The position numbers and the translations under genes were made by a program. Under the pieces are notes generated by a model that saw only the letters and a list, made by a program, of their open reading frames with translations, ran no database searches and had not been told where the DNA came from. A stretch of 38,221 nucleotides of DNA, taken from positions 1 through 38,221 of IMG/VR virus record IMGVR_UViG_3300033513_000029, one strand, 5' to 3'. Positions 5,701 through 38,219 of the stretch are shown here, piece by piece. Source of the DNA: a virus. Taxonomy: Duplodnaviria > Caudoviricetes. Each line of letters begins with the position of its first letter. Position 1 is the stretch's first letter.

Positions 5701-8332
5701 CTTCCATGGAAGCCTGTGCGTTCGATACCTGAATACTCGACTCCTGAATTTGCGCATGGGCGCGGGAAAAGGCATTTCTCCTCACCATTTCCCGCGTTTT
5801 GGGGGAAACATTCAGCTCCTCTTTGGAAAGGGGTTTTTGCGTCATTCCAATCTTTTGACGCAAGTACGCCTTTTGCTCGCGAGTGAATTGCTCCGCATGG
5901 TCACGGAGTTGCAGTGCCACCATTGCCTTGGTAATCGCTGGGTCAAACGCCTCCGGCGAATCCACCAATACCTCCAAGGCATTGCCACGGGAACGCTCTA
6001 TGACATGCTGCTTGTTGTCGTAAAGCGCATAAGGACGGTCTACCCCTGACATGGATTCAAAGGCGTCCGCCAATTTAATAACCGACAGTAATGCCCCTTG
6101 TTCCGGGGTTAGGGTATTGTTGTCGATAAGTTCCCGAATTTGCTGCGGGGAGTCGTGATGTCTGCGCGCCAGGGCGCGGGCCGCAATCCCAATCAGTCCG
6201 GGCGCGTCCGTTAGTCGGGTTTCTCCCGCTTCCGTATGCGCCTTAATAGCGGATCGTTCCTCCTCCGTGAATCTTCCTAATTGTGATGCGAGATAATCCT
6301 GCCGACGAAGCTCCTCTTCCGTCTTACCGGATTTGTCGATAAGCGTATTGAATTCCTTCTCTTCCGCTTTGGATAGTTTGTTCGCTTTGTCCAGGATGGA
6401 CTTCGGTACGTCCAGCTTTCCTTCGTCATGAAGAAGGGAAGCCATTGTTGCCAGGGTCAACCTGTCCGCGTCAAACCCAAGGAATTGACCGAGTTCACGA
6501 ACAATTTTCGCCACACCAAGAGAATGGCTTTCTGTCCAGTCGGAGTAACGATTTAAATCTGACAAATGCTTTTCAAGGTAATTTTTCATTTCCTTGCGCT
6601 TCGTCACATCCGGTTCCGCGAACGATAGTTCCGTTACTTCCGTTTCGGTGAAATCCCTGTCAGTACGAACGCCCCTTGGTGGTCTGTAACGTAACGGATG
6701 GTTCCCTTCCTCGTAGGAACGGATGGCGTCCCGGAAGATGTTTGCGGCGTCTTCGCGGGAGTCTCCGCCAAGGAAGGATCCTTGTCCTGTGTGGGCTTCG
6801 ACTTCGATTCCATAATGGTCTGCGACCTCTTGAACATTGGGCAGTAGCGTATTGCCTTGGTCGAAGACCATCACTCGCGTGCGCGTGCCCTTGGGGATTA
6901 GAGTGTGGAATTGGATTCCACGTTCCGTTAATGTTTGGCGTGCCGCTTCCACGGAATCGGGGAGATCCATCGAATACAGCGTATCCGGCCCGCCCTCGCC
7001 TTTCTGAAACGTAAGAATGGCTTTCTGGTGCCCCACCAAACCCTTCCATGCGGCATTGTATGTCAGGTCGTCACCGCCAACATTCGGGATGAACTCGGCA
7101 AGGGAATTCTCCGCGCCATCCACCCAATCGCCCACCGCGTCTTCCATGGAAAACTCCAATCCCATTTGGGCGTCGATGTCCTGCGCCAGGGTGCGGAATT
7201 GCGTATGTCGGGGGGAAGTCAAAATCTCCACGGCACGCGGGAAATCCATATCCTCTTCCTCGTTATTGGAGAAGAACTCATAAGCCGAACGTACCTCATC
7301 CTCCAGGGGCGCCACACCCGTCCGCGCCTCCAGCTTACGAACCGCATTCAAACGTTCATCGGAATCTTTAATGGATTCTTCATAAACCCATGGGGTTATT
7401 TGTCCTTCTCGCAAGGTGTCGGTGACGTTGACCCGATCTTCGGCGATTCTTTGTCTGAGCTGTTCCGAGAGTTGCTGGGTAGTTGGACGGTCAACCATCG
7501 CCGCCACATCATCAGGAACATTCTGAATCGCCATCGTCTCAGAAAGGTAATCTGGTCCAGCGGCTTGTGAGCGAATGGGGTTATTGACGTAATCCTCGAC
7601 AACGACACGCTGTGCCTCGGAAAAACGGGGCGATACGGAAGTCACCGCACCCGTAAGTGCGGCTGGTCCAAAAACATCCAAACTACGTTTTAACCCCTCG
7701 GTAACGGGTTTGCCAGTAATAATGGATTCAACAGGCTCCTCCGCCGCTTCCGTGGCACCTTCCCAAAGGGCCTGACTACCCGCTTTGAGTCCAGCTCGAA
7801 GAAGTTTGTTCCCAAGAGTACCGCCTGCCGTCACCCCCGGCTTGAAGAGCTGGAAAGCGGGAATAGCGTTCAAGGCACCCGTGGCAAGTCCCATCCCTAC
7901 GGCTTCAAGACGGGCCTCAGTTTCCGACTTTCCTTCGTCCAGCGCCTGCCGATAGGTGCTTGCCCCCTCCAGAGCGCCGCCTGTGGCGCCCGCCGCCAGG
8001 GAACCCGCCACCGTGGCGGCTTTCATGCCCAAGCCTACCCCTTTGGCCGCCGCGCCCGCGCCGCCACCCACCAACAGGGAAGCCACTGTTGAGGGAAGGG
8101 ATTGTCCGACGTTATAAAGCCACCAATCCGGATCTTTTAGGATGCTTGGATCATTGGCAACAGATTTACCTTGTAAATCTGCGTCAATTTGGTTCTCTTC
8201 TGTTTTCTTTTTAAAATGTTCGTATATACCTTGTCCGGTTTTCTCGGCACCCAGAAAATGCAAAAAGTCGCCCGCAGAGCGCCCAAGCCCGTAAACTCCC
8301 GCCGCCAAACCACGCCCAAATGAACCCGTCAT
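2732..8332 (-). CDS. giant polyvalent internal virion / DNA-ejection protein with HD-GYP-like domain, zincin HExxH motif and LPD38-like C-terminus
   Basis: 1866 aa, last gene of the ejection module. Gly/Ala-rich N-terminus; LLHDEGK...HH...LADAFESM..RPY; AHELGH; C-terminal GWQPYSVKIGDTYVSYSRLEPFG. Confidence 0.8.
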   Translation of the reverse strand: MTGSFGRGLAAGVYGLGRSAGDFLHFLGAEKTGQGIYEHFKKKTEENQIDADLQGKSVANDPSILKDPDWWLYNVGQSLPSTVASLLVGGGAGAAAKGVGLGMKAATVAGSLAAGATGGALEGASTYRQALDEGKSETEARLEAVGMGLATGALNAIPAFQLFKPGVTAGGTLGNKLLRAGLKAGSQALWEGATEAAEEPVESIITGKPVTEGLKRSLDVFGPAALTGAVTSVSPRFSEAQRVVVEDYVNNPIRSQAAGPDYLSETMAIQNVPDDVAAMVDRPTTQQLSEQLRQRIAEDRVNVTDTLREGQITPWVYEESIKDSDERLNAVRKLEARTGVAPLEDEVRSAYEFFSNNEEEDMDFPRAVEILTSPRHTQFRTLAQDIDAQMGLEFSMEDAVGDWVDGAENSLAEFIPNVGGDDLTYNAAWKGLVGHQKAILTFQKGEGGPDTLYSMDLPDSVEAARQTLTERGIQFHTLIPKGTRTRVMVFDQGNTLLPNVQEVADHYGIEVEAHTGQGSFLGGDSREDAANIFRDAIRSYEEGNHPLRYRPPRGVRTDRDFTETEVTELSFAEPDVTKRKEMKNYLEKHLSDLNRYSDWTESHSLGVAKIVRELGQFLGFDADRLTLATMASLLHDEGKLDVPKSILDKANKLSKAEEKEFNTLIDKSGKTEEELRRQDYLASQLGRFTEEERSAIKAHTEAGETRLTDAPGLIGIAARALARRHHDSPQQIRELIDNNTLTPEQGALLSVIKLADAFESMSGVDRPYALYDNKQHVIERSRGNALEVLVDSPEAFDPAITKAMVALQLRDHAEQFTREQKAYLRQKIGMTQKPLSKEELNVSPKTREMVRRNAFSRAHAQIQESSIQVSNAQASMEVVETVGKLFGSQDADQDWAPVINSAHREVLAASFRDLFDAGLPRQIVNLVNRVGVLKGTDHAAFNSRNHIMGFNEEILQAAKEAPMTRSLRAVRFDVAHELGHAVDYLTGRSVAMASPLFQMSESVVSDGNVDTDKMGPVIRELYEAYAENKGGLRRLLHYPFYKLSGKAEDNYFVQREAVGQLMGLYYEYPAAAQKYLPEGVKLMEGIKNALQTQRNADLESAIRGAFQASGAGVGGETDGGVGNSPIIAAITGDRIPGTPLPGSSQAAGKPGGGTAAPPALKTLGAVVGEQEMPGAAKREVRPHDLTKAIADRLGASPVEVDKFARRNIGRAFNAEELAQAVTLLDKTSSDFQKFTREYVTRIKEGRASDLDDQAFTEQRLNFATIQAQFVGVSGEAGRALNILRLAKDQASRAELIRQTIGSSSDIRNQAQLIDALPLGSQASVVRETLAPTKMDKFMEIWINGLLSGPQTHVANTVSNAIVSALEDVERFVGATFGKLHGGDKVTFGEALNRVYGNIDGTVAGLAAMAKALRSEDAIDLFGKVEGGAYKKAIPGAIGKIVRGPGRFLNAEDMFYKALTVSKEYRALAMREAQLTGRSFQDLLTNPDDTLMEKAWSVARTATFTNELGDIGQAVQRVLSKHPYMRLIAPFIKTPSNIVKFVLKRTPAGLLFHDVQSDIKAGGAARDMALARIATGTSIGAAIFSLTLAGMFTGKGPDDPNQKRLLYQTGWQPYSVKIGDTYVSYSRLEPFGMLVGMAADMAEMAQVMEEKEAGELMAMFVGSFAKNMTSKTYLRGLSEMMEAMSDPDRYGKQWIMNYAGTAVPTGIAQLARSRDPYLRRADNIMDKIKERIPGLRETLPEKVDLFGKPIKVEGSIGPDLLSVLYMSTQKDDPVSQEMLRLGIFKSGVSKKLAGVDLTQEEYAEYQRIAGRLARDHLQRMVGSTGWKSLSDKDKEDMIRKIFDMQRKEARKQILAKFPDIERRKAAQ

Positions 8333-20786: not shown

Positions 20787-20792
20787 ATTATA
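20787..20792 (-). promoter_or_regulatory. possible -10 box upstream of the tailspike gene
   Basis: Perfect TATAAT 31 nt upstream of the ATG; no convincing -35. Confidence 0.3.
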
Positions 20793-20828
20793 CTACGTGG
20801 AGATTTTTAATGAGATAGGGTAACGGGG

Positions 20829-20868
20829 AACCCCGGCCCCCTCACTACTAACCGAGAGGACCGGGGTT
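20829..20868 (-). other. intergenic 15-bp RNA hairpin (2 G-U pairs), no U-tract
   Basis: AACCCCGGTCCTCTC-N10-GAGGGGGCCGGGGTT immediately after the stop at 20879. Confidence 0.55.
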
Positions 20869-24791: not shown

Positions 24792-25018
24792 TGGGTACTT
24801 ACCGTTCCGAGATCATGGTTTCCAGTACGGTCTGGCGCTTCACCGTTCGCGAATTTGTCGGCCATTCGCAACAATAAATGCGCCGCTTCCTTACACATCA
24901 TTGTTTTTTGTTCGCATTGAAAACGCCCCGGAAACTTAATATCCACTTTTGCCCACAATTCACCATCATCTGCGGTATAGATAAGGGCAATCGGAATTTC
25001 CAAGATTCCATTTACCAT
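24788..25018 (-). CDS. hypothetical protein
   Basis: GGAGGAG SD before ATG 25018; stop overlaps the MTase start. Confidence 0.5.
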   Translation of the reverse strand: MVNGILEIPIALIYTADDGELWAKVDIKFPGRFQCEQKTMMCKEAAHLLLRMADKFANGEAPDRTGNHDLGTVSTQ

Positions 25019-25215
25019 ATCTCCTCCTCCGGCTTCAATCGCCATTCGCACACCACGAAGTCAAAACTTGGATCTGGGTTGTCCTTCCAGGGTTGCTCCG
25101 GCGAACATCGCGATTGCACCACTCTGCCATCCTTGAACCCTTGTACGAGTTCCATAATTTCGTCAACGGTTATCCGGCGGCGACGCGTACTCTCCAGGAT
25201 ACGAAAGCGTGTCAT
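25012..25215 (-). CDS. hypothetical protein
   Basis: ATGA-coupled; W.D..P.FDF...EWRLKPE motif seen in small phage proteins. Confidence 0.55.
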   Translation of the reverse strand: MTRFRILESTRRRRITVDEIMELVQGFKDGRVVQSRCSPEQPWKDNPDPSFDFVVCEWRLKPEEEIW

Positions 25216-26825: not shown

Positions 26826-26844
26826 TTATTGCCCCATTTCGTGC

Positions 26845-27002
26845 TCAGGACCATAAGTAAACCAATGTCTCATTCTCTTTCTTGCCCTTTCGCTTCCCCG
26901 CGTAAAAAGCCGCTTTAGCGACTTTCCATGCAAGGGAATCTTTAGGTATTTGTTCCCGATCTCTTTCTACCATTCATCGAATTGTGTATCCTCAATAGTC
27001 AT
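26845..27002 (-). pseudogene. small ORF with apparent 1-nt frameshift
   Basis: MTIEDTQFDEW stops at TAG 26969-26967; one more G would join it to VERDREQIPKDSLAWKVAKAAFYAG. Confidence 0.35.
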
Positions 27003-27053
27003 TTTTCACACCTTCTCCGGTCCATAACGCTATCACAAGCTCTCTCATTGTGG

Positions 27054-27194
27054 TTACCAGAACTTGACAACAAAGTGAAACACTGCCACCCAGAACGCGA
27101 CAGCTATTGCCAATCCCACGATGGCCGCCGCTACTTTCACAAAATCCTCGATTGTCATGACTTTTCGGGGCACCTTCTCGAATTTAGGGCGCAC
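27054..27194 (-). CDS. 46-aa membrane peptide (not in ORF track)
   Basis: GGAGGGG SD, GTG start, TM segment VAAAIVGLAIAVAFWVAVFHFVV. Confidence 0.5.
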   Translation of the reverse strand: MRPKFEKVPRKVMTIEDFVKVAAAIVGLAIAVAFWVAVFHFVVKFW

Positions 27195-27371
27195 TATGCC
27201 ATCCCCCTCCAGGAGAATTCAATTGGTTTGGAAACTATTTTTTCCGCTCCTGGCTTATCCCGTTTGCGGAATGGCGCGTATACGATTCTCAACAGGGTTG
27301 GCGCACTATCGTAAATGCGCCTACGGGGAGGGGGAACATCGATATTCTTGTGGTGACTACGACTGGTAAAT

Positions 27372-27406
27372 AAAAAAGACCCTTGGAGCGGGGTACTCCA
27401 AGGGTC
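27372..27406 (-). terminator. intrinsic terminator after the capsid/cement genes
   Basis: 11-bp perfect stem GACCCTTGGAG/CTCCAAGGGTC followed by T6 on the - strand. Confidence 0.85.
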
Positions 27407-27432
27407 AAAGGGTCTCCGGGGTGAGGAGACGG

Positions 27433-27848: not shown

Positions 27849-28889
27849 TTAGGTATGGGCAATGGCGTAGGTCGGAATGACCATACTACCAAAGTCCACC
27901 GAGTTGAACTGAAGCTTCTTGAGTCCGGCAATCGTTCCGGCTTCCACGCCCAACTGGTTCTTGTAGTCGAAGAACTCTTCGTTCCAGTCGTACTTGGAGC
28001 CGGTACTGTAACCCTTGCCAAACGCAATCGCCGCTGCCTGCGCGCCGCAGAAGATGGCGCGTCTCGTCGTCGTCGTGGGGGCCGGGAGTCGATGCGTGCT
28101 ATGGATCACCGTGTTGTTATACACGCCAATCGCACCCGAGAAGATGGGATTATCCGTCCCCTCGCCGCCCTCCAAGCGGGCCCGCATGATGTCCCCCCAC
28201 TCACCCGCCGTGAAGTTCCGACGTAGATCGGTTTCCTGATAGGGGTGAATGAAGAGTACCCAATAGTCCTTGCCGCCGACCTTGACCGGACGCATGGGGT
28301 AGGTGCGCAGCTTCGCCTTCTCGATAGCCCAGTCAATCAGCTTGACGCTCATGATGTCAGCCGTGGACATGGATGCCGTGGAGGTCAGCGAGGTTCTCGG
28401 CTCCAGGATGTTCTCCGGGGCGATGGCCGCCTGCAAACCCGTATAGCGGGTATCGGTTTCGTCGGTATTGCCACTGAGCTGGTTGAAGAACCAGTAGTCG
28501 AAGCGGTCAGCCCACCAGTCGGCCAGGGCATCGCGTGCCAGGGCGCGGACGTTGTAGGGGATACGCTGCTCGGACATCTTGCCCGTCGAGCGCACCGCGT
28601 GGCGGAGCTGGTTGATGTAGAGATCGTCGTGGTAGATCGTCAGGTCTTCTTCGTTGCCTTCCTGCGTGTTGTCGCCCAACACACCGGCACCAGACAACTG
28701 AATACGAAGACTGACACGCACCCGGTCGCCGTCCCCCTTCAGCTCATTGCGCACCTGACACAGGGAATTGTCAGACGTGCCCATGAACCGAAACGCATAG
28801 GTCTTCTTGAGCAGTTCCTTGAAAAGGTCGCTTGCCCAGTACTTACGCGCTTGGGGATGGTCCACCGGCCATTGATTTGCCGTTGCCAT
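27849..28889 (-). CDS. major capsid protein, N4-gp56/DUF4043-like
   Basis: GDRV...L.G.GV.GD...EGNEE.L, INQLRHAV, HPYQ..DLR, NPIFSGAIG.YN, RAIFCGAQA motifs. Confidence 0.92.
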   Translation of the reverse strand: MATANQWPVDHPQARKYWASDLFKELLKKTYAFRFMGTSDNSLCQVRNELKGDGDRVRVSLRIQLSGAGVLGDNTQEGNEEDLTIYHDDLYINQLRHAVRSTGKMSEQRIPYNVRALARDALADWWADRFDYWFFNQLSGNTDETDTRYTGLQAAIAPENILEPRTSLTSTASMSTADIMSVKLIDWAIEKAKLRTYPMRPVKVGGKDYWVLFIHPYQETDLRRNFTAGEWGDIMRARLEGGEGTDNPIFSGAIGVYNNTVIHSTHRLPAPTTTTRRAIFCGAQAAAIAFGKGYSTGSKYDWNEEFFDYKNQLGVEAGTIAGLKKLQFNSVDFGSMVIPTYAIAHT

Positions 28890-29032
28890 CGATATACGCC
28901 TCTAATGTGAGCCTTACCTTGAACCGGTCAAGGTTTCCGACTCGTCCCACTGCGGGGGGGCGTACCGATGGCGCACGTCACAGGGTGCGTAAACTGAAAA
29001 CGCTATTTTTACCGGTTGCGTTCCGAGCCTCC

Positions 29033-29071
29033 AAAAAAAGGAGCCACGATAGCCGTATCTATCGTGGCTCC
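29033..29071 (-). terminator. intrinsic terminator upstream of the capsid leader
   Basis: 13-bp perfect stem GGAGCCACGATAG/CTATCGTGGCTCC followed by T7. Confidence 0.88.
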
Positions 29072-29121
29072 GGGGTACGGCCCAGCGCTGAGGAGGGAGC
29101 GCTATAGTGGGCCGTCGGGGC
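29033..29121 (-). ncRNA. candidate ~90-nt small RNA with an anti-Shine-Dalgarno loop
   Basis: Non-coding, between a sigma70-like promoter and a terminator; hairpin ACGGCCC-actat-AGCGCT[CCCTCCTC]AGCGCT-GGGCCGT. 5' end estimated. Confidence 0.55.
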
Positions 29122-29127
29122 GAGATA

Positions 29128-29157
29128 ATTATTTCGCGCTTGGTAAGGTCATGTCAA
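29128..29157 (-). promoter_or_regulatory. sigma70-like promoter
   Basis: TTGACA (29157-29152), 18-nt spacer, AATAAT (29133-29128). Confidence 0.6.
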
Positions 29158-29167
29158 TAGGGGCCCC

Positions 29168-29383
29168 TTATTCTTCATACGCCAGTCTGCGAATCTCCCA
29201 ATAGCCATCCTGAATAGTTGGCCCAGTACTCTTCTCGTGCGCCAAATCTCCAATCTCGTGAAGTAGATTTGACAACCTCTCATTCTCTTCGCGCAGCCGA
29301 TTAATCTCCACCAGCATCTCGAAAACAATCGCGTCGAAGTCTTCGGCGTTTCGGGTCAGCCGCTCCCCGTAACTTTGGCTCAA
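29168..29383 (-). CDS. small coiled-coil hypothetical protein
   Basis: EINRLREENERL pattern; TTG start. Confidence 0.55.
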   Translation of the reverse strand: MSQSYGERLTRNAEDFDAIVFEMLVEINRLREENERLSNLLHEIGDLAHEKSTGPTIQDGYWEIRRLAYEE

Positions 29384-29722
29384 GGTAATTCGTCCCCATG
29401 TTCCAGGATAGATAGCAATCCCTCAAGGAAGAGATATTCGGCTTCTGCGGCCTCTTGAACAATCTCCCACTCTATCTTTGTTTTGTTTATAGTTTCCAAC
29501 AGCAAACCAAACGGCCCCTCTGACGTCTGCCCAAGTCCAATAAGGCGAACCTAAACAGCCATCGTTCCCTGTCACCTCCCGCACTGGACAATCTCTGCAA
29601 CCCAGCCTTTGGCACAACTGACACCATGGCTCCTCCATGTCGGGATACACCATCAGCCGTTGCCACTTCGAAAGCGAGGCGCGCAAGGCCTCAATCGTAT
29701 ACGCCCTTATGTTGTCTCTCAT
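29380..29722 (-). pseudogene. Cys-rich phage protein with apparent +1 frameshift
   Basis: EALRASLSKW...CQLC...CRDCPV..TG..GC.GSPY. The family-like C-terminus AAEAEYLFL lies in a shifted frame whose stop (29380) overlaps the next start. Confidence 0.5.
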
Positions 29723-29883
29723 TGTCCCACCTTCTTGATCGGCGTTGCTTTCTGGTTTACCGGCAAATGATTCTTACACCAGTAACGCCCATCTTCAGTC
29801 TGATACTGAGGCACCGCACCGCAGTTCCATCCCTTCCAATGTCCGGACTGGCGCACTCCGCTACAGTGGATTTGCGGACTCAT
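29719..29883 (-). CDS. 54-aa Zn-finger-like protein (not in ORF track)
   Basis: MSPQIHCSG...WNCG...YWCKNH; ATGA overlaps at both ends. Confidence 0.6.
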   Translation of the reverse strand: MSPQIHCSGVRQSGHWKGWNCGAVPQYQTEDGRYWCKNHLPVNQKATPIKKVGQ

Positions 29884-30065
29884 TGCCCCACGTCCTTCAG
29901 TAAGCCCTCAACCTCTTGGCTCAACTCCCGATAGGCCGCTTCCAGTCCGGACTCCAAGTCATCCAGCCGGTCTATCCATCCGGCCATCTTCTCCAAGGGA
30001 GATGAATCATGCTCCCATGAATCCTTCATTTCCTTTACCACCGCACCAATGCTGTCACCCATCAC
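29880..30065 (-). CDS. hypothetical protein
   Basis: 61 aa acidic helical ORF, coupled on both sides. Confidence 0.6.
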   Translation of the reverse strand: MMGDSIGAVVKEMKDSWEHDSSPLEKMAGWIDRLDDLESGLEAAYRELSQEVEGLLKDVGQ

Positions 30066-30253
30066 TTCTTCCCCCGCTGTAAGCCCATCAGGTCCGCCAA
30101 CTGCCGTTGGATCTCCTCCCTGCCATCCGCCACGCCTCGCGCATACTCACGCTTCTTGGGCTCCTCCATAGGCTCTTTGAGCGTCCGCGCCCTTTCCCGC
30201 GCCGTTCGCACCAACACCGCCAGCCGCTTGAAGTCATTCCCCGTTATTGCCAT
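30062..30253 (-). CDS. hypothetical protein
   Basis: 63 aa, AGAGG SD, YARGVADG motif. Confidence 0.6.
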   Translation of the reverse strand: MAITGNDFKRLAVLVRTARERARTLKEPMEEPKKREYARGVADGREEIQRQLADLMGLQRGKK

Positions 30254-30295
30254 TTGATTGCCTCTGAATTTTCATGTGGAAATCCCTACCGTTTA

Positions 30296-30613
30296 CTAAG
30301 GTTTTTCCATCAATTCCTTGGCCAGCTCATTCACATCCGCCCATAACAACCACCCCGGCTGTCCGGGAATCCTTACCAGACCACCCTCGTTCTCCAGCGT
30401 CCTTGGATGTTGGCCTACCCACTCTACCAACTGGTCTGCGCAGATAGAGAATAGAATTGCCTTTTGGGCTTCACCCTCCGGGCATTGCTTCTCTTGCCAT
30501 TCCAGGTAACGGTCTCTGATTGTGGCCTTGTTGCGTGCCCGCATGGTCCAGACATTCTTGTCCGTAATCACTGTAAAGAACCATCGGGCCCCATCCTCAA
30601 AGATCACCTTCAT
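30296..30613 (-). CDS. hypothetical protein
   Basis: 105 aa; overlaps the upstream ORF; ends TAG TAA. Confidence 0.6.
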   Translation of the reverse strand: MKVIFEDGARWFFTVITDKNVWTMRARNKATIRDRYLEWQEKQCPEGEAQKAILFSICADQLVEWVGQHPRTLENEGGLVRIPGQPGWLLWADVNELAKELMEKP

Positions 30614-30848
30614 CGTTATTTTCCCCCGTGCAATATGAACAGGGCGGGCTTATGTGACACGAACACCCTGAAGGAAATTCCGTATGATAGGCTCGAAGTG
30701 GATCCACGTGGTTGTCATACGCCTTCTGTTCCGGGGTTAGTCGCTTGTACGCCGCCGCCCTTCTGGCCCGCCTACATAAGCCACATTCCTCGTGATCTTG
30801 CGGCTCACAACTGCATCCCACTGGTCTTGGGTTCCACGTCACTGTCAC
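30597..30848 (-). CDS. Cys-rich small protein
   Basis: GCSC...CGLC and GCSCHISPPCSYC motifs; GAGGAG SD before a GTG start. Confidence 0.65.
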   Translation of the reverse strand: MTVTWNPRPVGCSCEPQDHEECGLCRRARRAAAYKRLTPEQKAYDNHVDPLRAYHTEFPSGCSCHISPPCSYCTGENNDEGDL

Positions 30849-30859
30849 GGTCTCCTCAC

Positions 30860-30889
30860 AAAAAAGAGGGGACAGTTTCCCATCCCCTC
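30860..30889 (-). terminator. intrinsic terminator
   Basis: GAGGGGATGG-GAAA-CTGTCCCCTC followed by T6. Confidence 0.75.
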
Positions 30890-30896
30890 GTTTCGG

Positions 30897-31232
30897 TCAG
30901 TCTTGCACCCGGCGCCACCCTTCGGGGGTATGCTCGCGTTGCCGACGGATCTCGTAGTTGCCGGGACCAATCCCCAGGGCTTCATGCGTGTCGAAAGCGC
31001 GCAAATGCCGCAATTCGACATTGCCCTCAACGACCACGTAGCTCACCAAGGGGTCGTTGCTCTGAAAGCAATGCACATCTTTCCTCGGCAACACGTGATG
31101 GTGCCCAGTCTCGCTATGACCCACCACATACACCTCGCCCTCCGGAACCATTGGCGCCAACCCCTCGGGGATATCCTTGATCCTGCGGACCAGCAGGTCA
31201 CCTTGCGCAGCCTGTTTTCCAAACGTCTTCAT
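30897..31232 (-). CDS. His-rich small partner protein of the DUF6745 protein
   Basis: QGDL, GHSETGHHH, H...THE...PG.YEIRRQRE motifs; ATGA-coupled to the upstream gene. Confidence 0.75.
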   Translation of the reverse strand: MKTFGKQAAQGDLLVRRIKDIPEGLAPMVPEGEVYVVGHSETGHHHVLPRKDVHCFQSNDPLVSYVVVEGNVELRHLRAFDTHEALGIGPGNYEIRRQREHTPEGWRRVQD

Positions 31233-33130
31233 GTCCTCACCTCCGGATAATAATCATTCGCGTCAAGCGAGTACGTCCAGGCATTCGCCTCTCTCGCCGT
31301 CCGCATCTCTTGTGGAACCGGAATAGCAAACTCTCGCCCCGTCCCACATTTGACTACCAAGAAACGTTCCTGTTCGGCATCGGGCAAATCCACCTCCAAA
31401 AGCGTCCCCACCATGGGATTGGTGTCCCGATCTACTTCTTTGGCATTAAGCTCCCTCAATATACGGGCCCACCCCACTATTTCGCAAGCGGCCCGACGCT
31501 TTTCAATATCCTGTTCTTTCAACGCCATTTCTGGCGTGAGAGATCCCTTGTCCTCAATCCATTCGCCAGGGACGCGCACGCCATGCCAATGATACAGGCT
31601 CCACCCATCCCTCCATTTATGGCTTGGCCCATCTTCGCAATGCGGACGGTTGCGATCATCCATTTTCAAAACCTCCGGAAAATCCGACACCATGCAAAAC
31701 TCCTCGTGCATCATCCGGAAGCCCCCGTGAATCGCCGCCCGCTCCCATGCGTCATATTTCTCATAAACAGGCAACCGAAGACCCAAAACATCCCTACCCG
31801 CGGTCAGATAGCAATCATACGCCACCGCCATGTTTCCTCCCTGATACATAGCCCACCACCGACTCATACACCCAGTTACAAACTGTATCCATCCCTTAGA
31901 GGACGCGGCGCGGTAGGTCGCGTCACGGATCGCGGCAGCGGTCGCGGCATCGGTCACAGCACGGGTCGCGGCATAGGTCGCGGCGACGGTCGCGGCACGG
32001 ATCGCGGCACGGGTTGCGTCATAGGTCGCGTCACGGGTCGCGGCATAGGTCGCGGCGTGGGTCGCGTCACGGGTCACGACACGGGTCGCGGTAGCGGTCG
32101 CGTCAGCGGTCGCGATGTCGGTCGCGGCGTGGGTCGCGACTTCGGTCGCGACGGCGGTCGCGATGTCGGTCGCATCGCGGGTCGCGGCGTAGGTCGCGAC
32201 TTCGGTCACGACGCGGGTCGCATCGTAGGTCGCGGCGGCGGTCGCGTCACGGGTCACGACGCGGGTCGCACCGTAGGTCGCATCATCGGTCGCGGCGACG
32301 GTCGCGTCGCGGGTCGCGAAAGCGGTCGCGACTTCGGTCGCGTCACGGGTCGCGACGTCGGTCGCGTCGCGGGTCGCAGCGTCGGTCGCGGCAACGGTCG
32401 CGACATCGGTCGCGGCGTGGGTCGCGTCACGGGTCACGTCACGGGTCACGTCACGGGTCGCGTCGTAGGTCGCGGCATCGGTCGCGGCGCGAGTCGCGGC
32501 ATCGGTCGCAAGAGCCGCGTCACGGATCGCGGCATAGGTCGCGATGTCGGTCGCGGCGTGGGTCGCGACTTCGGTCGCGGCATAGGTCGCGGCGACGGTC
32601 GCGTCACGGGTCGCGACGACGGTCGCGACGGCGGTCGCGATGTCGGTCGCGTCACGGGTCGCGGCGCGGGTCGCGTCACGGGTCACGACACGGGTCGCGA
32701 TAGCGGTCGCGGCGTGGGTCGCGTCACGGGTCACGACACGGGTCGCGGTAGCGGTCGCGGCATAGGTCGCGTCACGGATCGCGGCATAGGTCGCGGCGAC
32801 GGTCGCAGCAGCGGTCGCGGCGCGGGTCGCAGCATGAATCTCATTAAACCCCGGAGTCTTCCTAGGATTTTTCCGCGCGTACCATACGGCCGCCGCCGCA
32901 CCACCCGCTACCGCCATGATTCTTGGACTCGGCACAACCACCACACGCGGCTCTTTCAACCCCGCTACTCGATATAAATCCCTAATTGCCCTCCCAATTT
33001 CATTGGGCTCAATCGGCGCCGTCCGTAACGCCCGCGCAATCCACATTTCAGAATGCGCCGCCATTCGCGCCTTTTCTTCAGGCGTGACCCCACCACCCGC
33101 AAAAGTCGGAGTTCTCACAATCTTTTCCAT
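31229..33130 (-). CDS. DUF6745-like protein with a long xxAT tetrapeptide repeat
   Basis: C-terminal RPHCEDGPSHKWRDGWSLYHWHGVRVP, E.RRAACEIVGW, CGTGREF..PVP; central repeat block. Confidence 0.8.
   Translation of the reverse strand: MEKIVRTPTFAGGGVTPEEKARMAAHSEMWIARALRTAPIEPNEIGRAIRDLYRVAGLKEPRVVVVPSPRIMAVAGGAAAAVWYARKNPRKTPGFNEIHAATRAATAAATVAATYAAIRDATYAATATATRVVTRDATHAATAIATRVVTRDATRAATRDATDIATAVATVVATRDATVAATYAATEVATHAATDIATYAAIRDAALATDAATRAATDAATYDATRDVTRDVTRDATHAATDVATVAATDAATRDATDVATRDATEVATAFATRDATVAATDDATYGATRVVTRDATAAATYDATRVVTEVATYAATRDATDIATAVATEVATHAATDIATADATATATRVVTRDATHAATYAATRDATYDATRAAIRAATVAATYAATRAVTDAATAAAIRDATYRAASSKGWIQFVTGCMSRWWAMYQGGNMAVAYDCYLTAGRDVLGLRLPVYEKYDAWERAAIHGGFRMMHEEFCMVSDFPEVLKMDDRNRPHCEDGPSHKWRDGWSLYHWHGVRVPGEWIEDKGSLTPEMALKEQDIEKRRAACEIVGWARILRELNAKEVDRDTNPMVGTLLEVDLPDAEQERFLVVKCGTGREFAIPVPQEMRTAREANAWTYSLDANDYYPEVRT
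31916..32836. repeat. array of 77 short units (76 x 12 bp and 1 x 9 bp): near-constant GCGACC plus 6 variable nt
   Basis: GGTCGC (variants GGTCAC, GATCGC) recurs every 12 nt on the + strand over 921 bp. Confidence 0.95.
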
Positions 33131-33145
33131 CGCTTAATCCCCTCG

Positions 33146-33172
33146 AAAAGAAGGGGGCAAACACGCCCCCTC
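33146..33172 (-). terminator. probable intrinsic terminator after DUF932
   Basis: GAGGGGGC-GTGTTT-GCCCCCTT followed by CTTTT. Confidence 0.55.
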
Positions 33173-33176
33173 GATA

Positions 33177-34145
33177 TCATGCCGCCAACTTCAACGCCAA
33201 CTCAAACGCCCGCGTTTTGGTCTGGTTGCCGTCCCCAAACCACGCCCGCTGCAATCTCGCATCATCCGAACGGGTCTTGCGCTCGTGGTCCACATACCGC
33301 GTCACCGCATTTACCAAACCCCACGCCGTTCCATTCGCGGAACGAACGCTCTGCCCCACCCCATTCTCGTAGATGTCCACAATCTGCAACATCTGGCTCT
33401 TCACGCGCGGCGCCTCCATATCCACGTCACGTCCCTCGTAATACAGATCCACGAAGAACTTGACCGCCTCTTCCTTGGACACTCGCCGCTCAGCAAGTGC
33501 CTGCGCCCGACGCTGAAATTTTTCCCACACCTCGTTGGTTTCCAGCCCCAACCGCCCCTTGATCACGCTGGCATTAAACTTCGTGCTATGCCGCAGCGAC
33601 ACGCCATTCCCCGCATCCCGGCCCACACTGAGGTTCAGCGTATTGTTGCACACCACCCTCACCGTGGTCCTGGTTGCCACCGTCGCCATGCTTCCATCAA
33701 AGGACGTGGCCAGAAGAACATACCCATTCACCCGGTCCTGCCCCATGATCGTCGCCTCTTCCCCGGTACGGGCCAACGCCCACACCCGCTTCCCTCCGTA
33801 CAAAGACCCCGCCGTTTCCATCCGGTACCCCATCCCTTCCACCAGACTGCGATAGAACTCCAGCACCTCACGCGGCTGCACCAGCCGGTAGTCCTCACCC
33901 ATTACCGCCAAATCCGCCCCCGTGTCAGAACGGTAAATCACCTTTTTACCCGCAATGACACGAGGCTCCCCATCCACCATCCGGTACACCTCACCTTCGC
34001 GGGCCTCCCAGCCCAACCCGGCAACATGCTCCCACACCTCCAAAGGCTGGTTCGCCGGAAGTTCGTGTCCCAGTCCATGCCAGGGCATATCGCCCACATA
34101 CGCAATATTCGCCCGATTGTTGGAAAAGTCTATCTCGTGTGCCAT
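33177..34145 (-). CDS. DUF932 / TIGR03299 phage-plasmid family protein
   Basis: MAHEI...PWHGLG, ETAGSL.GGKRVWALA, TSFDGS, VRVVCNNTL, GTAWGLVNAVTRYVDH. Confidence 0.92.
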   Translation of the reverse strand: MAHEIDFSNNRANIAYVGDMPWHGLGHELPANQPLEVWEHVAGLGWEAREGEVYRMVDGEPRVIAGKKVIYRSDTGADLAVMGEDYRLVQPREVLEFYRSLVEGMGYRMETAGSLYGGKRVWALARTGEEATIMGQDRVNGYVLLATSFDGSMATVATRTTVRVVCNNTLNLSVGRDAGNGVSLRHSTKFNASVIKGRLGLETNEVWEKFQRRAQALAERRVSKEEAVKFFVDLYYEGRDVDMEAPRVKSQMLQIVDIYENGVGQSVRSANGTAWGLVNAVTRYVDHERKTRSDDARLQRAWFGDGNQTKTRAFELALKLAA

Positions 34146-34146
34146 A

Positions 34147-34440
34147 TCAATTCCTCTCCTCTTCTTTACCCATGTTGTAAGCCACCGCCGTCGCGCTTAC
34201 CGTCGCGTCCGTATACGCAACTCGATTGGCATACATTACATTCCCTTCATACCCCGCCGCTTTCAGAAAGCGAATCGCCTCAAACTTCGGGTTCGCTTCC
34301 TTCATCTTCACCGACATCGCGAAGAGGGTATATTCCCACTCCTGCAATGGCGTTTTCGCGGGAATCGCCGAATGATTCTCCGGCTTCGCTTCCTTCAGCA
34401 TCTCCGCAATAAACGCCACCTGCGCCTTCGTGAATTTCAT
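34147..34440 (-). CDS. hypothetical early protein (predicted sRNA target)
   Basis: GAGGAGGG SD 7 nt before the ATG; NPKF...RFLKA motif of a common small phage family. Confidence 0.7.
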   Translation of the reverse strand: MKFTKAQVAFIAEMLKEAKPENHSAIPAKTPLQEWEYTLFAMSVKMKEANPKFEAIRFLKAAGYEGNVMYANRVAYTDATVSATAVAYNMGKEEERN

Positions 34441-34634
34441 AGCGACGCCCTCCTCGCAAGCTCTTCGCTAATCTCACCACTACGAACCTTTTCGTCAATG
34501 AAATCCACCCACATGCACCGCACCGTCGCAGAATAGTCGTTCTGCCGATACGTCACCCGATAACAGTCCCGAATTACCCCCGGCACGCTTTCCCAGAACG
34601 CCCTTCGTAAATCCTTCTGATTCGTAAATTTCAT
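34437..34634 (-). CDS. hypothetical early protein
   Basis: TNQKDLRRAFWE...RQNDY.ATVRCMWVDFID..RSGEISE.LA.R; strong SD. Confidence 0.7.
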   Translation of the reverse strand: MKFTNQKDLRRAFWESVPGVIRDCYRVTYRQNDYSATVRCMWVDFIDEKVRSGEISEELARRASL

Positions 34635-34762
34635 CGCTCATCCTCCTCCGTCCACCACAACCCACCACACCCCTGACACTGGAACCACAACACCAGCCCC
34701 AACCATCCCAGACAAACCACCCGCGATCCCTCGCCACCACATAACGGACAGTCCCCTTCCAA
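34631..34762 (-). CDS. 43-aa Zn-ribbon protein (not in ORF track)
   Basis: TTG start; CPLCGG...LG.LG...WFQCQGCG; TGA overlaps the next ATG. Confidence 0.6.
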   Translation of the reverse strand: MEGDCPLCGGEGSRVVCLGWLGLVLWFQCQGCGGLWWTEEDER

Positions 34763-34796
34763 TCCCTTCGCCCCTCTCGCTTCTCTTCATAATCTT

Positions 34797-34824
34797 AGAA
34801 TAGCTTTCAGGAAGAAGGTTTCAA
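34797..34824 (-). promoter_or_regulatory. sigma70-like promoter heading the early-gene island
   Basis: TTGAAA, 16-nt spacer, TATTCT, in the only AT-rich intergenic gap before the island. Confidence 0.45.
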
Positions 34825-34853
34825 ACCACAATCGATTGCTTTTACGGTAACGA

Positions 34854-35207
34854 TTAGGTCAGGCGACGCATAATGGATTTGACTACGATTGCCTCACACA
34901 TTCCCACAAAATACTCTTGGGGATAGGCGTTTTTCATTATGTTGACGTGTTCGTGAACCCATTGGACATTCCCTGTCTCGTAAGGTTTCTTGCTGTCGAT
35001 CCGATCCACACTCGCCGTCCGCTCGCGCCCATTCTTTCCCAGCACGAGAGAGAGGCCGGTCAGCGCGCACCGGCCCTCCTGCGCTTCCCAGAGCGCCGCC
35101 AGCTCTTCGGGAGTGACACTGACGGCTATCCCCCGCACCTTCGCACTTCGGGTCAAGGAAGACCACACGTGACGAGGGAGGATTAATACGCTACACATTT
35201 CTCGCAC
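34854..35207 (-). CDS. His-Me finger (HNH-like) endonuclease, start uncertain
   Basis: LWEAQEGRCALTG...ASVDRIDS.KPY..GNVQWV...VN.MK. Confidence 0.75.
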   Translation of the reverse strand: MREMCSVLILPRHVWSSLTRSAKVRGIAVSVTPEELAALWEAQEGRCALTGLSLVLGKNGRERTASVDRIDSKKPYETGNVQWVHEHVNIMKNAYPQEYFVGMCEAIVVKSIMRRLT

Positions 35208-36130
35208 ACCGTCCCCGTCACATCCCGCTTCAGGTGAGCCTTGCGCAGCTCGATAAACTTCGGCGAGTTCCAGGCACTCATGAAGTGCTCCGTCACGAGG
35301 TCACCCATGATCCAGTTCCCGCCCGCGTCAAAGCAGCATGCCGACAACCCGCCATCCGCCCGTACATGCCCTTCCGTAAAGGCGGACCAGCAGGGTAAGG
35401 GCTCTCTCAAGGCTTCCAACCGCCCTTGATTCCCCGCCGTAGGCCGATACCCCAATTCCTTCTCCCGCTGAGTGGCGAAGGCGCCCATGGAATAAAGGGG
35501 AAGCCAGTAATGCTGATCCACATAGTCAATAATCGTATGCAAGACCGGCTGCATCTCGCCCCTATGCTGTTCGTCGTACAAGATCGAAGAGGCGTACAAT
35601 TTCGTCTTATACCCTCCCCGCTCCCGCACCCTGAAAGCATCACGAATGTTCTCGTGCGCCTTATGGAAGAGTCGGCGAGACACGCCCATAATCTTCGCGA
35701 ACTGGTCCTCATTCGCCGCATTCACCGACCACTTCAATGAGTCCAGCCCAGCCGCCATCACCGCTCCCACCCGGTCGGGAAACGCCAGGGACGCATTCGA
35801 TGTGCAAAACACATACGGCATCGCCAATTCCCGCTTCAGATATGTCACCGCGTCCGTCAACAATTCCGGCGCACTGAAGGGTTCGCCAAGATAGAACACT
35901 CCGATCTCCTCCACTCCCGCCTCCCGCATCTCCCTCGTAATCCGTTTGAACAAATCCAGGTCCATATCCTTCTTCGGCTGATTCTCTCGGGTTCGCAACG
36001 CGCAAAACCCGCAGCGGTAATTGCACCTTGGCGACAACTCGATCTTTACCGACTTCGGGGCGGGAAGAATGGCGTGCAAATACTCCGCCTTAATCTTTGT
36101 AATATTGTCGATTCTCGTTGTAATTGTCAT
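35183..36130 (-). CDS. radical SAM enzyme with C-terminal SPASM/Twitch-like domain
   Basis: CNYRCGFC (CxxxCxxC), GEP, then PC...V..DG..SACC.D...GDL...W...LR..H...C.KC. Confidence 0.9.
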   Translation of the reverse strand: MTITTRIDNITKIKAEYLHAILPAPKSVKIELSPRCNYRCGFCALRTRENQPKKDMDLDLFKRITREMREAGVEEIGVFYLGEPFSAPELLTDAVTYLKRELAMPYVFCTSNASLAFPDRVGAVMAAGLDSLKWSVNAANEDQFAKIMGVSRRLFHKAHENIRDAFRVRERGGYKTKLYASSILYDEQHRGEMQPVLHTIIDYVDQHYWLPLYSMGAFATQREKELGYRPTAGNQGRLEALREPLPCWSAFTEGHVRADGGLSACCFDAGGNWIMGDLVTEHFMSAWNSPKFIELRKAHLKRDVTGTVCEKCVAY

Positions 36131-36133
36131 TTT

Positions 36134-37060
36134 TTATTTCCTTCCAAACACTTCTTTCATGGCCACAAAGAATTCATCCATTCCCTCCTCGTCTCCCGTT
36201 TCTACCGCCTTGCTTTCGGCGGCCTTCCCGGACCCCAAAGTTCTTGCGGCTCTTCTGTTCTCGCGCTCCGCTGCAATCTGCTCTCGCGCTTCCGCTTCCT
36301 TATCACCTTTCTCTTGGGCTTTTCGTTGATACCCATATTCCTTCGCCATTTGGTACACAATTTCCGCCGGGTTACGTTTCTTACTCAACGCCGCTTGGGC
36401 CAACGCGAGTTCCCGACGTGACACCTCCTGCATCACCCGTTCCGGATCTACATCCTCCCCGGCAAAAAGCATAATCGCCTTCGCTTCCACCTTACGAATG
36501 TGGTTCAAGGCGTCGTAATAGTCAGGGTTTTCCGCCACGAATTCCTTTTCCATCTTGTCCACCTGCCCAATCACGACACTCGTTTGCCGCTGCGTCTCGC
36601 GCTGTTCCTCCTCCGCCACTTCCCTCTCATGAAGACGCCGCGTCTCTTCCTCCAGTCGCTTGGTCCGCTCATGAAGGTTTTCCACCGGGCGCTCCTCGAA
36701 CGGCGGGGGTTCGGGCTTCTCTTCCTCCGCCTTCTCGGCCTTCGTCGCCTCGTAGGCACGAAACCGCTCCTCCAGGCCACGCAACTGCTCTTCAAGCGCC
36801 TGCCTTTTCTTGCGCTCGCCCCTCAGCTCCGCCAAAGGGACCCATTTACCTTTCGGACGTTCCTCTTCCTTCTCTTCCGGCTCTTCCGCTTCCTCTTCTT
36901 CCGACTCTTCCGCTTCCTTCTCTTCCGGCTCTTCTTCCTCTACCTCCTCATGCTCTTCCTCTTTTTCTTTTTCTTCCTCTTCTTCCACTTCCTCCACTTT
37001 ATCGTTTTCCACCAGCTCTTCAATGAACTTGTCCACGTCTTCAAACATTGTCAGATCCAC
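36134..37060 (-). CDS. capsid scaffolding protein
   Basis: Very acidic N-terminus, VPLAELRGERKKRQ, F..ENPDYYDA, NPAE..Y..AK..GY; directly follows the portal. Confidence 0.8.
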   Translation of the reverse strand: MDLTMFEDVDKFIEELVENDKVEEVEEEEEKEKEEEHEEVEEEEPEEKEAEESEEEEAEEPEEKEEERPKGKWVPLAELRGERKKRQALEEQLRGLEERFRAYEATKAEKAEEEKPEPPPFEERPVENLHERTKRLEEETRRLHEREVAEEEQRETQRQTSVVIGQVDKMEKEFVAENPDYYDALNHIRKVEAKAIMLFAGEDVDPERVMQEVSRRELALAQAALSKKRNPAEIVYQMAKEYGYQRKAQEKGDKEAEAREQIAAERENRRAARTLGSGKAAESKAVETGDEEGMDEFFVAMKEVFGRK

Positions 37061-38219
37061 CTGTATTGAATTGTTTGTTGTTCGCTTCTTCTATCTTCGC
37101 GTAGGCGCTCGCCTTGTTCAGCTCCACCTTCGATTCCGTTTCCGCCACTTCCGCCATCTGACCACGCAACGTCACTTGCTCCGCAATCTCCGTCTTCTTC
37201 TGAACCTCCGGTGAAGGCTGCAAGGACGCCTTCCACTTCTCCGCCAACACCTTGGGCAACGGCAAGTAATCCAGAATTTCTGCGGGCGGCATCACACCCA
37301 CCTTCGACAGGAAGGGCAACAACTGCATCAACACCGCGAATACCCGATCCCGCTCGTTCGGACTCGTCGGACTCTCACTCACCACCACATCATATTCCAC
37401 CGACAACCGATCTCTCATCAGCGGAATGTATTCTTCGGAACCATCCTCCCCCATGATGCGAATCAGCCTACCATCGGAAATATGCTCGCGAATGAACTGC
37501 GCCAACACCCGACCATGCACATGACGATAGGCCGCCAACGCGGTAAACGCCCACGAAAGAATCGTCATCCCCGCCTGTTTTCGCTGCGCCTCCAACACCC
37601 CCGGCTGGACCTTCTCCGCCAACCCCAACAGCTCCATATTCACACCCGTCACTTCCGTGAACATGGACATAGCCGTCGCCAACAACTTATCCAGCCCCGA
37701 TGGAATCGACGGGGGCGGTCTCGGCATCACCTTTCCATTCGTCAATGACCCCGCCGCCACCAAGGACACCGTATCCGGCTGCGCCCAATCCTCCTTGAAT
37801 TTCTGAATATCAATAATCGCGTCTTCCTCGGCAATAAGTCCGCCCTTCGCGTTAGTATTGATAATCCACAAAATCTCCGAATACAACTTATTCACCCATT
37901 GCTGGGGTGAAATAAGGTTCCTCACAATCCCATACCACAACCCCTTGTTGCGGTCCAATACCCCAGTCATGCAATTGAGCGTAAACCAGTCCTTCTTGAT
38001 ATCCATTTGCTCTAGAACGGTATCGCCAGCGATAAACGCCTGCCTTACCACCCGACGCTTATCCTCCATATAGGATTTTTGCAAACGGGAATACACATTC
38101 GGGAATTTGTCCCTCAACGACTTCCATTGTTCTTGATCGAACTCCTGAACTCCCAAAGGCGTCGCCGCCCGATAAATCTTGCGATGCTCAATCCATTGAT
38201 ACTGAGCGACATAAACAAT
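37041..38219 (-). CDS. portal protein (P22-like), 5'-truncated by the window
   Basis: Frame is open to the window end; YGIVRNLISPQQWVNK, VTGVN.ELLG, RKQAG, RLIRI.GEDG, YDVVV.E.P.SP. Confidence 0.88.
   Translation of the reverse strand: MVYVAQYQWIEHRKIYRAATPLGVQEFDQEQWKSLRDKFPNVYSRLQKSYMEDKRRVVRQAFIAGDTVLEQMDIKKDWFTLNCMTGVLDRNKGLWYGIVRNLISPQQWVNKLYSEILWIINTNAKGGLIAEEDAIIDIQKFKEDWAQPDTVSLVAAGSLTNGKVMPRPPPSIPSGLDKLLATAMSMFTEVTGVNMELLGLAEKVQPGVLEAQRKQAGMTILSWAFTALAAYRHVHGRVLAQFIREHISDGRLIRIMGEDGSEEYIPLMRDRLSVEYDVVVSESPTSPNERDRVFAVLMQLLPFLSKVGVMPPAEILDYLPLPKVLAEKWKASLQPSPEVQKKTEIAEQVTLRGQMAEVAETESKVELNKASAYAKIEEANNKQFNTGGSDNV

Follow-up and report, generated by a model that had tools for sequence, protein, structure and literature searches.

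Morons of lambdoid phages are promoter-gene-terminator inserts in late operons. Few phage small RNAs are known, and most come from model coliphages and the prophages of pathogens (PMC12197685). One of them is c4 RNA of P1 and P7, whose loops pair around a ribosome-binding site in the phage's own operon (PMC12197685). SprX (RsaOR) of Staphylococcus aureus converting phages uses a C-rich loop to block the ribosome-binding site of an operon's second gene (PMC4005690). The alphaproteobacterial RNAs cuckoo, RSs0680 (CcsR) and ar14 are assemblies of two to four modules that carry the 9-nucleotide (nt) motif CCUCCUCCC in loops of 9-27 nt (PMC4615179). A short RNA can also arise as a by-product: the PR'-tR' cassette yields lambda 6S RNA and StxS, and such an RNA can act as a regulator (PMC7547250). 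Here we describe a candidate small-RNA unit on the minus strand of the virus record IMGVR_UViG_3300033513_000029 (Caudoviricetes), of which the whole stretch of 38,221 nt was analysed and is referred to below as the window. The unit lies just upstream of the major capsid gene, and the short RNA that it is predicted to specify has no open reading frame (ORF).

A predicted promoter-to-terminator unit ahead of the capsid gene

Read along the minus strand, the order of elements is stop codon, promoter, hairpin, terminator, a 143-nt leader and the capsid gene (Table 1). The earlier note on this DNA had reported the promoter TTGACA-N18-AATAAT, a first hairpin with a 5-nt bulge and an exposed loop, a terminator with a stem of 13 base pairs (bp) and seven U, and an RNA free of ORFs; all four are present, and the promoter matches at 11 of 12 positions. 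The pairing of 7+6 bp given there for hairpin 1 is as populated as the 8+5 bp form in Table 1 (A14 and A19 are each unpaired at ~0.5). No minus-strand ORF of at least 30 amino acids (aa) lies inside the RNA, and two overlapping plus-strand ORFs of 91 and 62 aa gave no PHROG match at E <= 0.1.

Above the bulge, the upper stem GCGCU/AGCGC of hairpin 1 presents the loop CCCUCCUC (29097-29090), whose unpaired probability in the predicted fold is 1.00. Within the loop lies CCUCC, which is the core of the anti-Shine-Dalgarno sequence of ribosomes. Of the 434 hairpins called on the minus strand of the window, just 2 (~0.5%) have CCTCC in the loop, hairpin 1 being one of them. Folding of the 101 nt that cover the unit gave -53.6 kcal/mol (z = -6.87), a value that none of 200 shuffles equalled. 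The terminator is the strongest terminator-like site in the window, and the best promoter match and the best terminator of the window thus stand ~55 nt apart on one strand.

The promoter is the sole site in the window that scores at least 11/12. First-order Markov simulations predict a mean of 0.24 such sites per 38 kb over both strands, and 21.5% of them hold at least one, so that the match is not significant alone; weaker promoter-like sites (at least 9/12) are about as frequent as chance predicts (12 where 15.9 were expected, and 12 where 11.2 were). It matters because of its location, 11 nt past the stop codon of the upstream 71-aa ORF (29170-29168) and ~13 nt before hairpin 1. By arithmetic from the simulations, the chance of an 11/12 site within about 60 nt upstream of the hairpins and on the right strand is ~2e-4. 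From its spacing, transcription is predicted to start near G 29121.

Judged as a small-RNA gene, the unit has a putative promoter of its own, by sequence match, and a predicted terminator of its own with seven U. The arrangement promoter-hairpin-terminator is the reverse of an operon end followed by the next promoter and therefore favours a dedicated short transcript. In-silico analysis thus supports a self-contained promoter-to-terminator unit for a structured, ORF-less RNA with an anti-Shine-Dalgarno-like loop.

Comparison with described RNAs and cassettes

SprX resembles the unit in being borne by phages and in using a C-rich hairpin loop against the ribosome-binding site of an internal operon gene (PMC4005690). 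It belongs to another host group and differs in sequence; it hits a host message, as toeprints and loop mutants established, whereas the present unit is known from its sequence and its candidate sites lie in the phage's own genes.

The earlier note had likened the RNA to the cuckoo/CcsR type. The two do have in common a stable hairpin displaying an anti-Shine-Dalgarno-like loop, and seven contiguous letters, CCUCCUC, occur both in the loop and in the family motif (PMC4615179). Membership of that family does not hold: the unit has one such hairpin instead of two to four modules, its second hairpin being a plain terminator with the motif-free loop AUACGG; its loop of 8 nt falls short of the family rule of 9-27 nt; and CcsR is co-transcribed with a DUF1127 gene, whereas here there is no DUF1127 and the upstream 71-aa ORF has no Pfam family. 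Rfam gave no match to the unit at the gathering score. At E <= 10 it gave seven sub-threshold matches, all on the minus strand and all generic hairpin-plus-terminator look-alikes; no cuckoo, CcsR or ar14 covariance model is among these seven.

c4 is likewise a small structured phage RNA with loop pairing at a ribosome-binding site. It differs in being processed from the transcript of its own target and in having two specific loop sequences instead of a generic anti-Shine-Dalgarno sequence (PMC12197685), and the Rfam search returned no c4 match for the unit. The unit resembles the PR'-tR' cassette (PMC7547250) in that an intrinsic terminator comes immediately after the promoter, within or just before late genes; that cassette, in contrast, heads the late operon beside the Q gene, whereas the unit is placed amid structural genes and its relatives lack it.

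Like a moron, the unit appears to carry its own promoter and terminator and sits between late genes that are adjacent in relatives. Classic morons encode proteins, whereas here no ORF lies between predicted start and terminator. Being missing in relatives and closing an insert between late genes, the unit has as its nearest concept a moron with RNA cargo, and we regard it as most likely an autonomous, moron-like small-RNA gene nested in a structural-gene operon. The sequence itself is new and lineage-specific and matches no Rfam family, and the RNA probably works like the C-rich-loop repressors.

The unit closes a lineage-specific insert

On the minus strand the gene order is portal, scaffold-like gene, ~7 kb of accessory genes, unit, major capsid gene and downstream genes. 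The accessory insert (29168-36130) separates the scaffold-like from the major capsid gene and encodes radical SAM/SPASM, HNH, DUF932 and DUF6745 proteins together with some ten small ORFs that belong to no family; on the capsid side it ends in the unit. Two relatives with 50-59% capsid identity (L002 and L003) have portal, scaffold, a short gap and capsid, and no insert. What the earlier note had taken for an early island or early region is therefore an accessory insert inside the structural module.

For a wider view of the capsid family, a profile of three capsid proteins was used to collect 80 IMG/VR loci (44-54% identity), of which 79 were used, those in which the locus extends 150 nt or more ahead of the capsid start. 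Upstream of the capsid gene, none of the 79 has sequence similarity to the unit (blastn, E <= 1) or a hairpin with a CCTCC loop; a terminator-like hairpin of any kind occurs in three and a promoter of at least 10/12 in one. The non-coding stretch that usually precedes the capsid gene in these relatives is 141 nt long at the median (n = 74), against the 143-nt leader here. This similarity in length, together with the absence of the unit from its kin, marks the unit as the capsid-side end of a lineage-specific insertion. On these comparisons it is not a conserved capsid regulator but the end of such an insertion, as morons are.

Close relatives are all but missing from the collections searched. 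Scans with the capsid protein found only the 50-59% relatives among viral contigs, and 30-50% relatives plus the window itself among metagenome contigs. A 20-mer of the hairpin top had 0 matches in viral contigs, and blastn of 28700-29500 against phage records gave nothing. In the relatives search the 71-aa ORF had no match and a 99-aa ORF one 15-residue match only. An 18-mer scan of genome contigs returned 21 matches in scattered phyla, against ~17 expected by arithmetic for 596 Gb and both strands, and none of the 21 shares the unit's flanks.

Two sets of look-alikes were set aside. The first is an 18-mer pair, L026 (Thiofaba sp., 386-436) and L020, in which loop and upper stem are those of hairpin 1, the lower stem is similar and six U follow; the resemblance was judged coincidental, the structure being a terminator after a peroxiredoxin gene. 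The second comprises motifs of the loop type ahead of the capsid genes of L003 and L006/L007, which have no significant structure (L003, z = -0.01) and no homology.

The scaffold/capsid junction also holds other endonuclease-bearing inserts, in MW202512.1 and in a Paracoccus phage. At 5475-6110 of MW202512.1 the capsid match starts at query residue 30 and is longer than the annotated capsid coding sequence; immediately upstream sits an HNH-like ORF with the annotation 'icea protein'. A homing endonuclease may have inserted here, at the capsid gene's 5' end.

A variant contig keeps the predicted fold

Logan contigs of other sequencing runs were aligned to the window, the comparison covering contigs only; none of the five runs listed is on record as holding RNA, and one of them, X5, labelled RNA-Seq, was flagged as probably DNA. 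Run X2 supplied a 744-nt contig, ~97% identical, that covers the unit together with the 5' end of the capsid gene. In it a T>C change at 29062 turns the pair 29062-29049 of the terminator stem from A-U to G-U in the minus-strand RNA and would be a mismatch in RNA of the other strand. At 29103 the contig has lost 5 nt, precisely the CUAUA bulge, and the helix becomes an unbroken 13 bp. Both hairpin changes (2/2) thus keep the structure, no helix is broken, and the loop and -10 hexamer are unchanged; the other itemised differences fall at 29127, just 3' of the -10 hexamer, and at 29026, beyond the terminator. The contigs of X2 and X5 alike cease to match the window at 29168 and carry other sequence in place of the 3' end of the 71-aa ORF, so that in these variants the unit remains joined to the capsid side.

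A tentative mechanism

Taken together, these features make the unit a good in-silico candidate for a lineage-specific small-RNA gene. The reading that we favour, though only tentatively, is that it specifies an autonomous RNA of ~88 nt that would reduce translation at strong Shine-Dalgarno sites. Transcription would begin at the predicted site, driven by a sigma-70-type promoter, and end at ~29033, at the 13-bp/U7 terminator, and a rigid, G+C-rich hairpin would keep the loop single-stranded and free to pair with strong ribosome-binding sites of the GGAGG type. A rigid C-rich, anti-Shine-Dalgarno-like loop is the signature of the ribosome-binding-site blockers SprX and cuckoo, which points to a dampening RNA (PMC4005690; PMC4615179). 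Candidate sites in the phage are the starts at 34634, 34440 and 34145, which belong to three consecutive genes (65 aa, 97 aa and DUF932), and the start at 25018; messages of the host would be further possible targets. While the signals, the exposed loop, the complementarities and the place of the unit at the end of an insert missing from relatives can be read directly from the DNA and its comparison, we infer that the promoter fires, that the RNA accumulates and acts in trans, and which messages it would touch.

Several points weigh against this reading. The sequence alone gives no sign of transcription; the 18-nt promoter spacer is not the optimal one; and the reading presupposes a host in which sigma-70 hexamers and this anti-Shine-Dalgarno core hold. 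For steric reasons, a hairpin loop of 8 nt cannot form all eight pairs. The best sub-threshold Rfam match, Scr3202, reaches 27.1 bits against a cut-off of 52. Absence from all 79 distant relatives indicates that the unit is young or dispensable, and its conservation is seen in near-identical variants only, namely the ~97% contig and a 79-nt piece with five non-itemised differences. In the X2 contig, moreover, four of seven substitutions lack an itemised position; they probably adjoin the joint at 29168, and the first bases of its -35 hexamer therefore cannot be vouched for.

If the favoured reading is right, small-RNA regulation through an ORF-less unit would reach environmental phages, here an uncultured podophage of freshwater or wetland origin, and the unit would be a case of a moron-like insert whose cargo is RNA.

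Table 1. Features of the window discussed in the text, in window coordinates.
Feature	Position	Strand	Details
Sigma-70-like promoter	29128-29157	minus	TTGACA 29157-29152, 18-nt spacer, AATAAT 29133-29128; 11/12
Hairpin 1	29115-29077	minus	8 bp + 5-nt bulge CUAUA (29107-29103) + 5 bp + 8-nt loop
Intrinsic terminator	29071-29033	minus	13-bp stem 29071-29040 with 8 G-C pairs; 6-nt loop AUACGG; seven U 29039-29033
Capsid leader	28890-29032	minus	143 nt, terminator to capsid ATG
Candidate target, 97-aa gene Shine-Dalgarno and start codon	34437-34456	minus	8-nt loop complement
Alternative site, 65-aa gene Shine-Dalgarno (start 34634)	34641-34649	minus	7-nt complement; -11.1 kcal/mol
Alternative site, DUF932 gene Shine-Dalgarno (start 34145)	34151-34162	minus	6-nt complement; -11.9 kcal/mol
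Alternative site, 76-aa gene Shine-Dalgarno (start 25018)	25019-25029	minus	7-nt complement; -12.0 kcal/mol
Major capsid gene	27849-28889	minus	346 aa; PF13252 7.6e-68; phrog_334 7.5e-83; next gene downstream of unit
71-aa ORF	29168-29383	minus	last of accessory insert; weak phrog_1816 match 6.7e-5; no Pfam family
DUF6745 gene	31229-33130	minus	accessory; 633-aa protein
DUF932 gene	33177-34145	minus	accessory
97-aa gene	34147-34440	minus	accessory small ORF; target proposed in the earlier note
65-aa gene	start 34634	minus	accessory small ORF
HNH endonuclease gene	34854-35207	minus	accessory
Radical SAM/SPASM gene	35183-36130	minus	accessory; weak PADLOC matches to prokaryotic viperins, 3.3e-7
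Scaffold-like gene	36134-37060	minus	23% identity over 225 residues to L003 scaffold gene, E 2e-9
P22-type portal gene	37041-38156	minus	cut by window end
Window	38,221 nt		linear IMG/VR virus record, Caudoviricetes; estimated ~59% complete

Alternative readings and candidate targets

The unit could also be a mere operon end, in which the hairpins terminate and stabilise the upstream accessory messages, the promoter hexamers are weak or incidental and no trans-acting RNA exists. The unit follows directly on the last ORF of the insert, strong terminators close both neighbouring gene blocks (30889-30866 and 27406-27378), and the identical loop in the ordinary Thiofaba terminator means that such loops occur in plain terminators and arise without a regulatory role; the frequency of an 11/12 site somewhere in simulated 38-kb sequences and the absence of the unit from the 79 relatives fit this reading too. 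We nevertheless consider it rather doubtful. The promoter stands exactly where that of a small RNA would stand, a coincidence to be expected by chance at only the ~2e-4 given above; the block common to the variants starts at 29168, beside the promoter, while the end of the upstream ORF is replaced; and a CCUCC loop is rare among the hairpins of the strand. Even on this explanation a 3'-end fragment with the loop would exist and could act after processing.

For the choice of targets, 44 minus-strand gene starts were curated by hand, and sites over the whole minus strand (1512 bins) were ranked with our own accessibility-corrected approximation of RNAup/IntaRNA, in which differences of 1-2 kcal/mol are within error. 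A whole-RNA cofold ranking was discarded because cofold cannot represent pairing from a closed hairpin loop.

A sub-case of the favoured reading, put forward in the earlier note, gives the RNA a single purpose, the silencing of the 97-aa gene for timing or antitoxin-like control. The complement that it rests on is real: GAGGAGGG, a perfect match to the 8-nt loop, stands at 34455-34448 on the minus strand, at the right distance (8 nt) from ATG 34440. The motif has four copies in the window against 1.33 expected, two of them on the minus strand, the second inside the scaffold-like gene (36190-36183). Real, too, is the extension of the pairing, which in duplexfold amounts to 16 pairs over 34456-34437, start codon included, at -27.7 kcal/mol. 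This raw duplex is the best of the 44 and 6 kcal/mol better than that of the next start (-21.7 kcal/mol). With the loop fixed, 28 of 1000 shuffles of the 5' flank reach the same energy, or 42 of 1000 if extension on either side is allowed. SprX offers a precedent for the second gene of an operon as the victim (PMC4005690).

We nonetheless hold silencing of this single gene to be unlikely. Melting of the upper stem costs 8.6-8.9 kcal/mol and unfolding of the target site 4.4-8.3 kcal/mol, which cancels the extension and leaves a net -10.4 kcal/mol against -10.2 for the loop only. After these costs the 34440 site ranks 11th of the 1512 bins and fifth among start-region sites, so that the 97-aa gene loses the privileged place that raw pairing had given it. 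Ahead of it come the starts at 25018, 34145 and 34634 (energies in Table 1) and at 26825 (-11.2 kcal/mol), the last pairing through the RNA's 5' tail; an internal site at 36191-36181 (-14.8 kcal/mol) is also ahead. A contiguous loop complement of at least 6 nt exists at 7 of the 44 gene starts: 8 nt at 34440, 7 nt at 34634, 25018 and 14864, and 6 nt at 34145, 30848 and 27831.

The earlier note had cautioned that the match could be due to chance. A perfect 8-nt match to some start region is found for 25 of 255 GGAGG-containing 8-mers, 7 of 31 purine-only ones and 4 of 28 with the same composition, so that a match to at least one of the 44 starts is expected for 10-23% of such loops; the extension of the pairing says more than the 8-mer does. 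The X2 variant deletes CUAUA, the supplier of half of the claimed extension. The site moreover lies inside the translated end of the 65-aa ORF, whose stop overlaps the start codon as ATGA. Nothing marks the 97-aa protein as a toxin: it falls into no family of Pfam, PHROG or PADLOC, and Atlas has only unnamed viral clusters for it. The X3 contig is identical to the window over 34138-34525, a region that the X2 variant does not cover. The 97-aa gene thus counts among four or five candidate sites and is perhaps the strongest of them in raw pairing. A further form of the favoured reading, which we regard as quite improbable, is an RNA-only moron whose anti-Shine-Dalgarno copy would throttle the accessory operon of the 65-aa, 97-aa and DUF932 genes and possibly host messages; if true, it would be a translation-level timing or dosage switch inside a structural-gene operon.

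A capsid gate of the lambda PR'-tR' type, in which the terminator stops a constitutive promoter until a phage antiterminator acts and the short RNA is a by-product, is more improbable still. In its favour, a strong promoter and then a strong terminator immediately precede the late gene whose product is needed most, the 143 nt between terminator and capsid ATG hold no sigma-70-like site of at least 9/12, and the complete relative MW202512.1 has NinB- and NinH-like genes, a hint of a lambdoid layout; StxS is a by-product of this kind turned regulator (PMC7547250). However, both the portal gene and the scaffold-like gene stand upstream on the same strand, which means that the late operon starts elsewhere, and the capsid family does not use such a gate, as the counts of terminators, promoters and comparable units (3, 1 and 0 of 79) indicate. 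No antiterminator family was found among the scanned ORFs of the window (~59% of the genome) or in the candidate region of MW202512.1, and no alternative antiterminator fold was evident on inspection.

Hardly credible at all is a site acting at the level of DNA, with the 13-bp-arm inverted repeat as an operator or recombination site at the insert edge: its stem holds the self-complementary AGCGCT twice and variant joints lie nearby at this insertion border, but the A-to-G change of X2 keeps its pair only in minus-strand RNA, the bulge deletion perfects the RNA helix, which fits selection on RNA folding, and the repeat occupies about +7 to +45 and does not cover the promoter, with no other copy in the window and outside all repeat families.

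Surroundings of the unit

Nearly all genes of the window are on the minus strand. Seven further small ORFs follow the DUF6745 gene, the last ending at 29168; past the capsid gene come a 132-aa gene, a TPR protein gene, methyltransferase genes and tail and internal-virion genes. A search for a late-promoter motif shared among 16 intergenic regions gave nothing convincing, TAAAAAT (7 found against 4.76 expected) and a longer pattern being at chance level.

Three strong intrinsic terminators lie within the same-strand gene array on the minus strand (27378-27406, 29040-29071 and 30866-30889), and two of the three bracket the capsid gene and the 132-aa gene. The leader beyond the 29040 terminator, which capsid transcription would have to pass or after which it would have to start, holds no sigma-70-like site. 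The leader folds by pairing 28972-28959 with 28900-28885, over the start codon and part of the Shine-Dalgarno sequence, with a z of -1.82 that is not significant. Beyond the 27378 terminator, ~600 nt (26826-27432) hold short ORFs only and no long minus-strand ORF, and a second terminator-like hairpin stands inside this stretch at 27104-27082.

Two accessory genes are internally repetitive. The 97-aa ORF contains a 29-nt direct repeat (34285-34313 and 34378-34406, 83% identical), so that its protein is internally duplicated. Inside the DUF6745 ORF, 12-nt periodic repeats at 31828-32500 (57 register-shifted copies, G+C 0.70) imply a region of 4-residue repeats within the 633-aa protein. Farther along the minus strand, a 16-bp hairpin without a U tail (20868-20829) is followed by a perfect TATAAT (20792-20787), which stands 31 nt ahead of the ATG of an 816-aa gene and lacks a good -35 hexamer; the site at 20787-20868 may be a promoter of another type.

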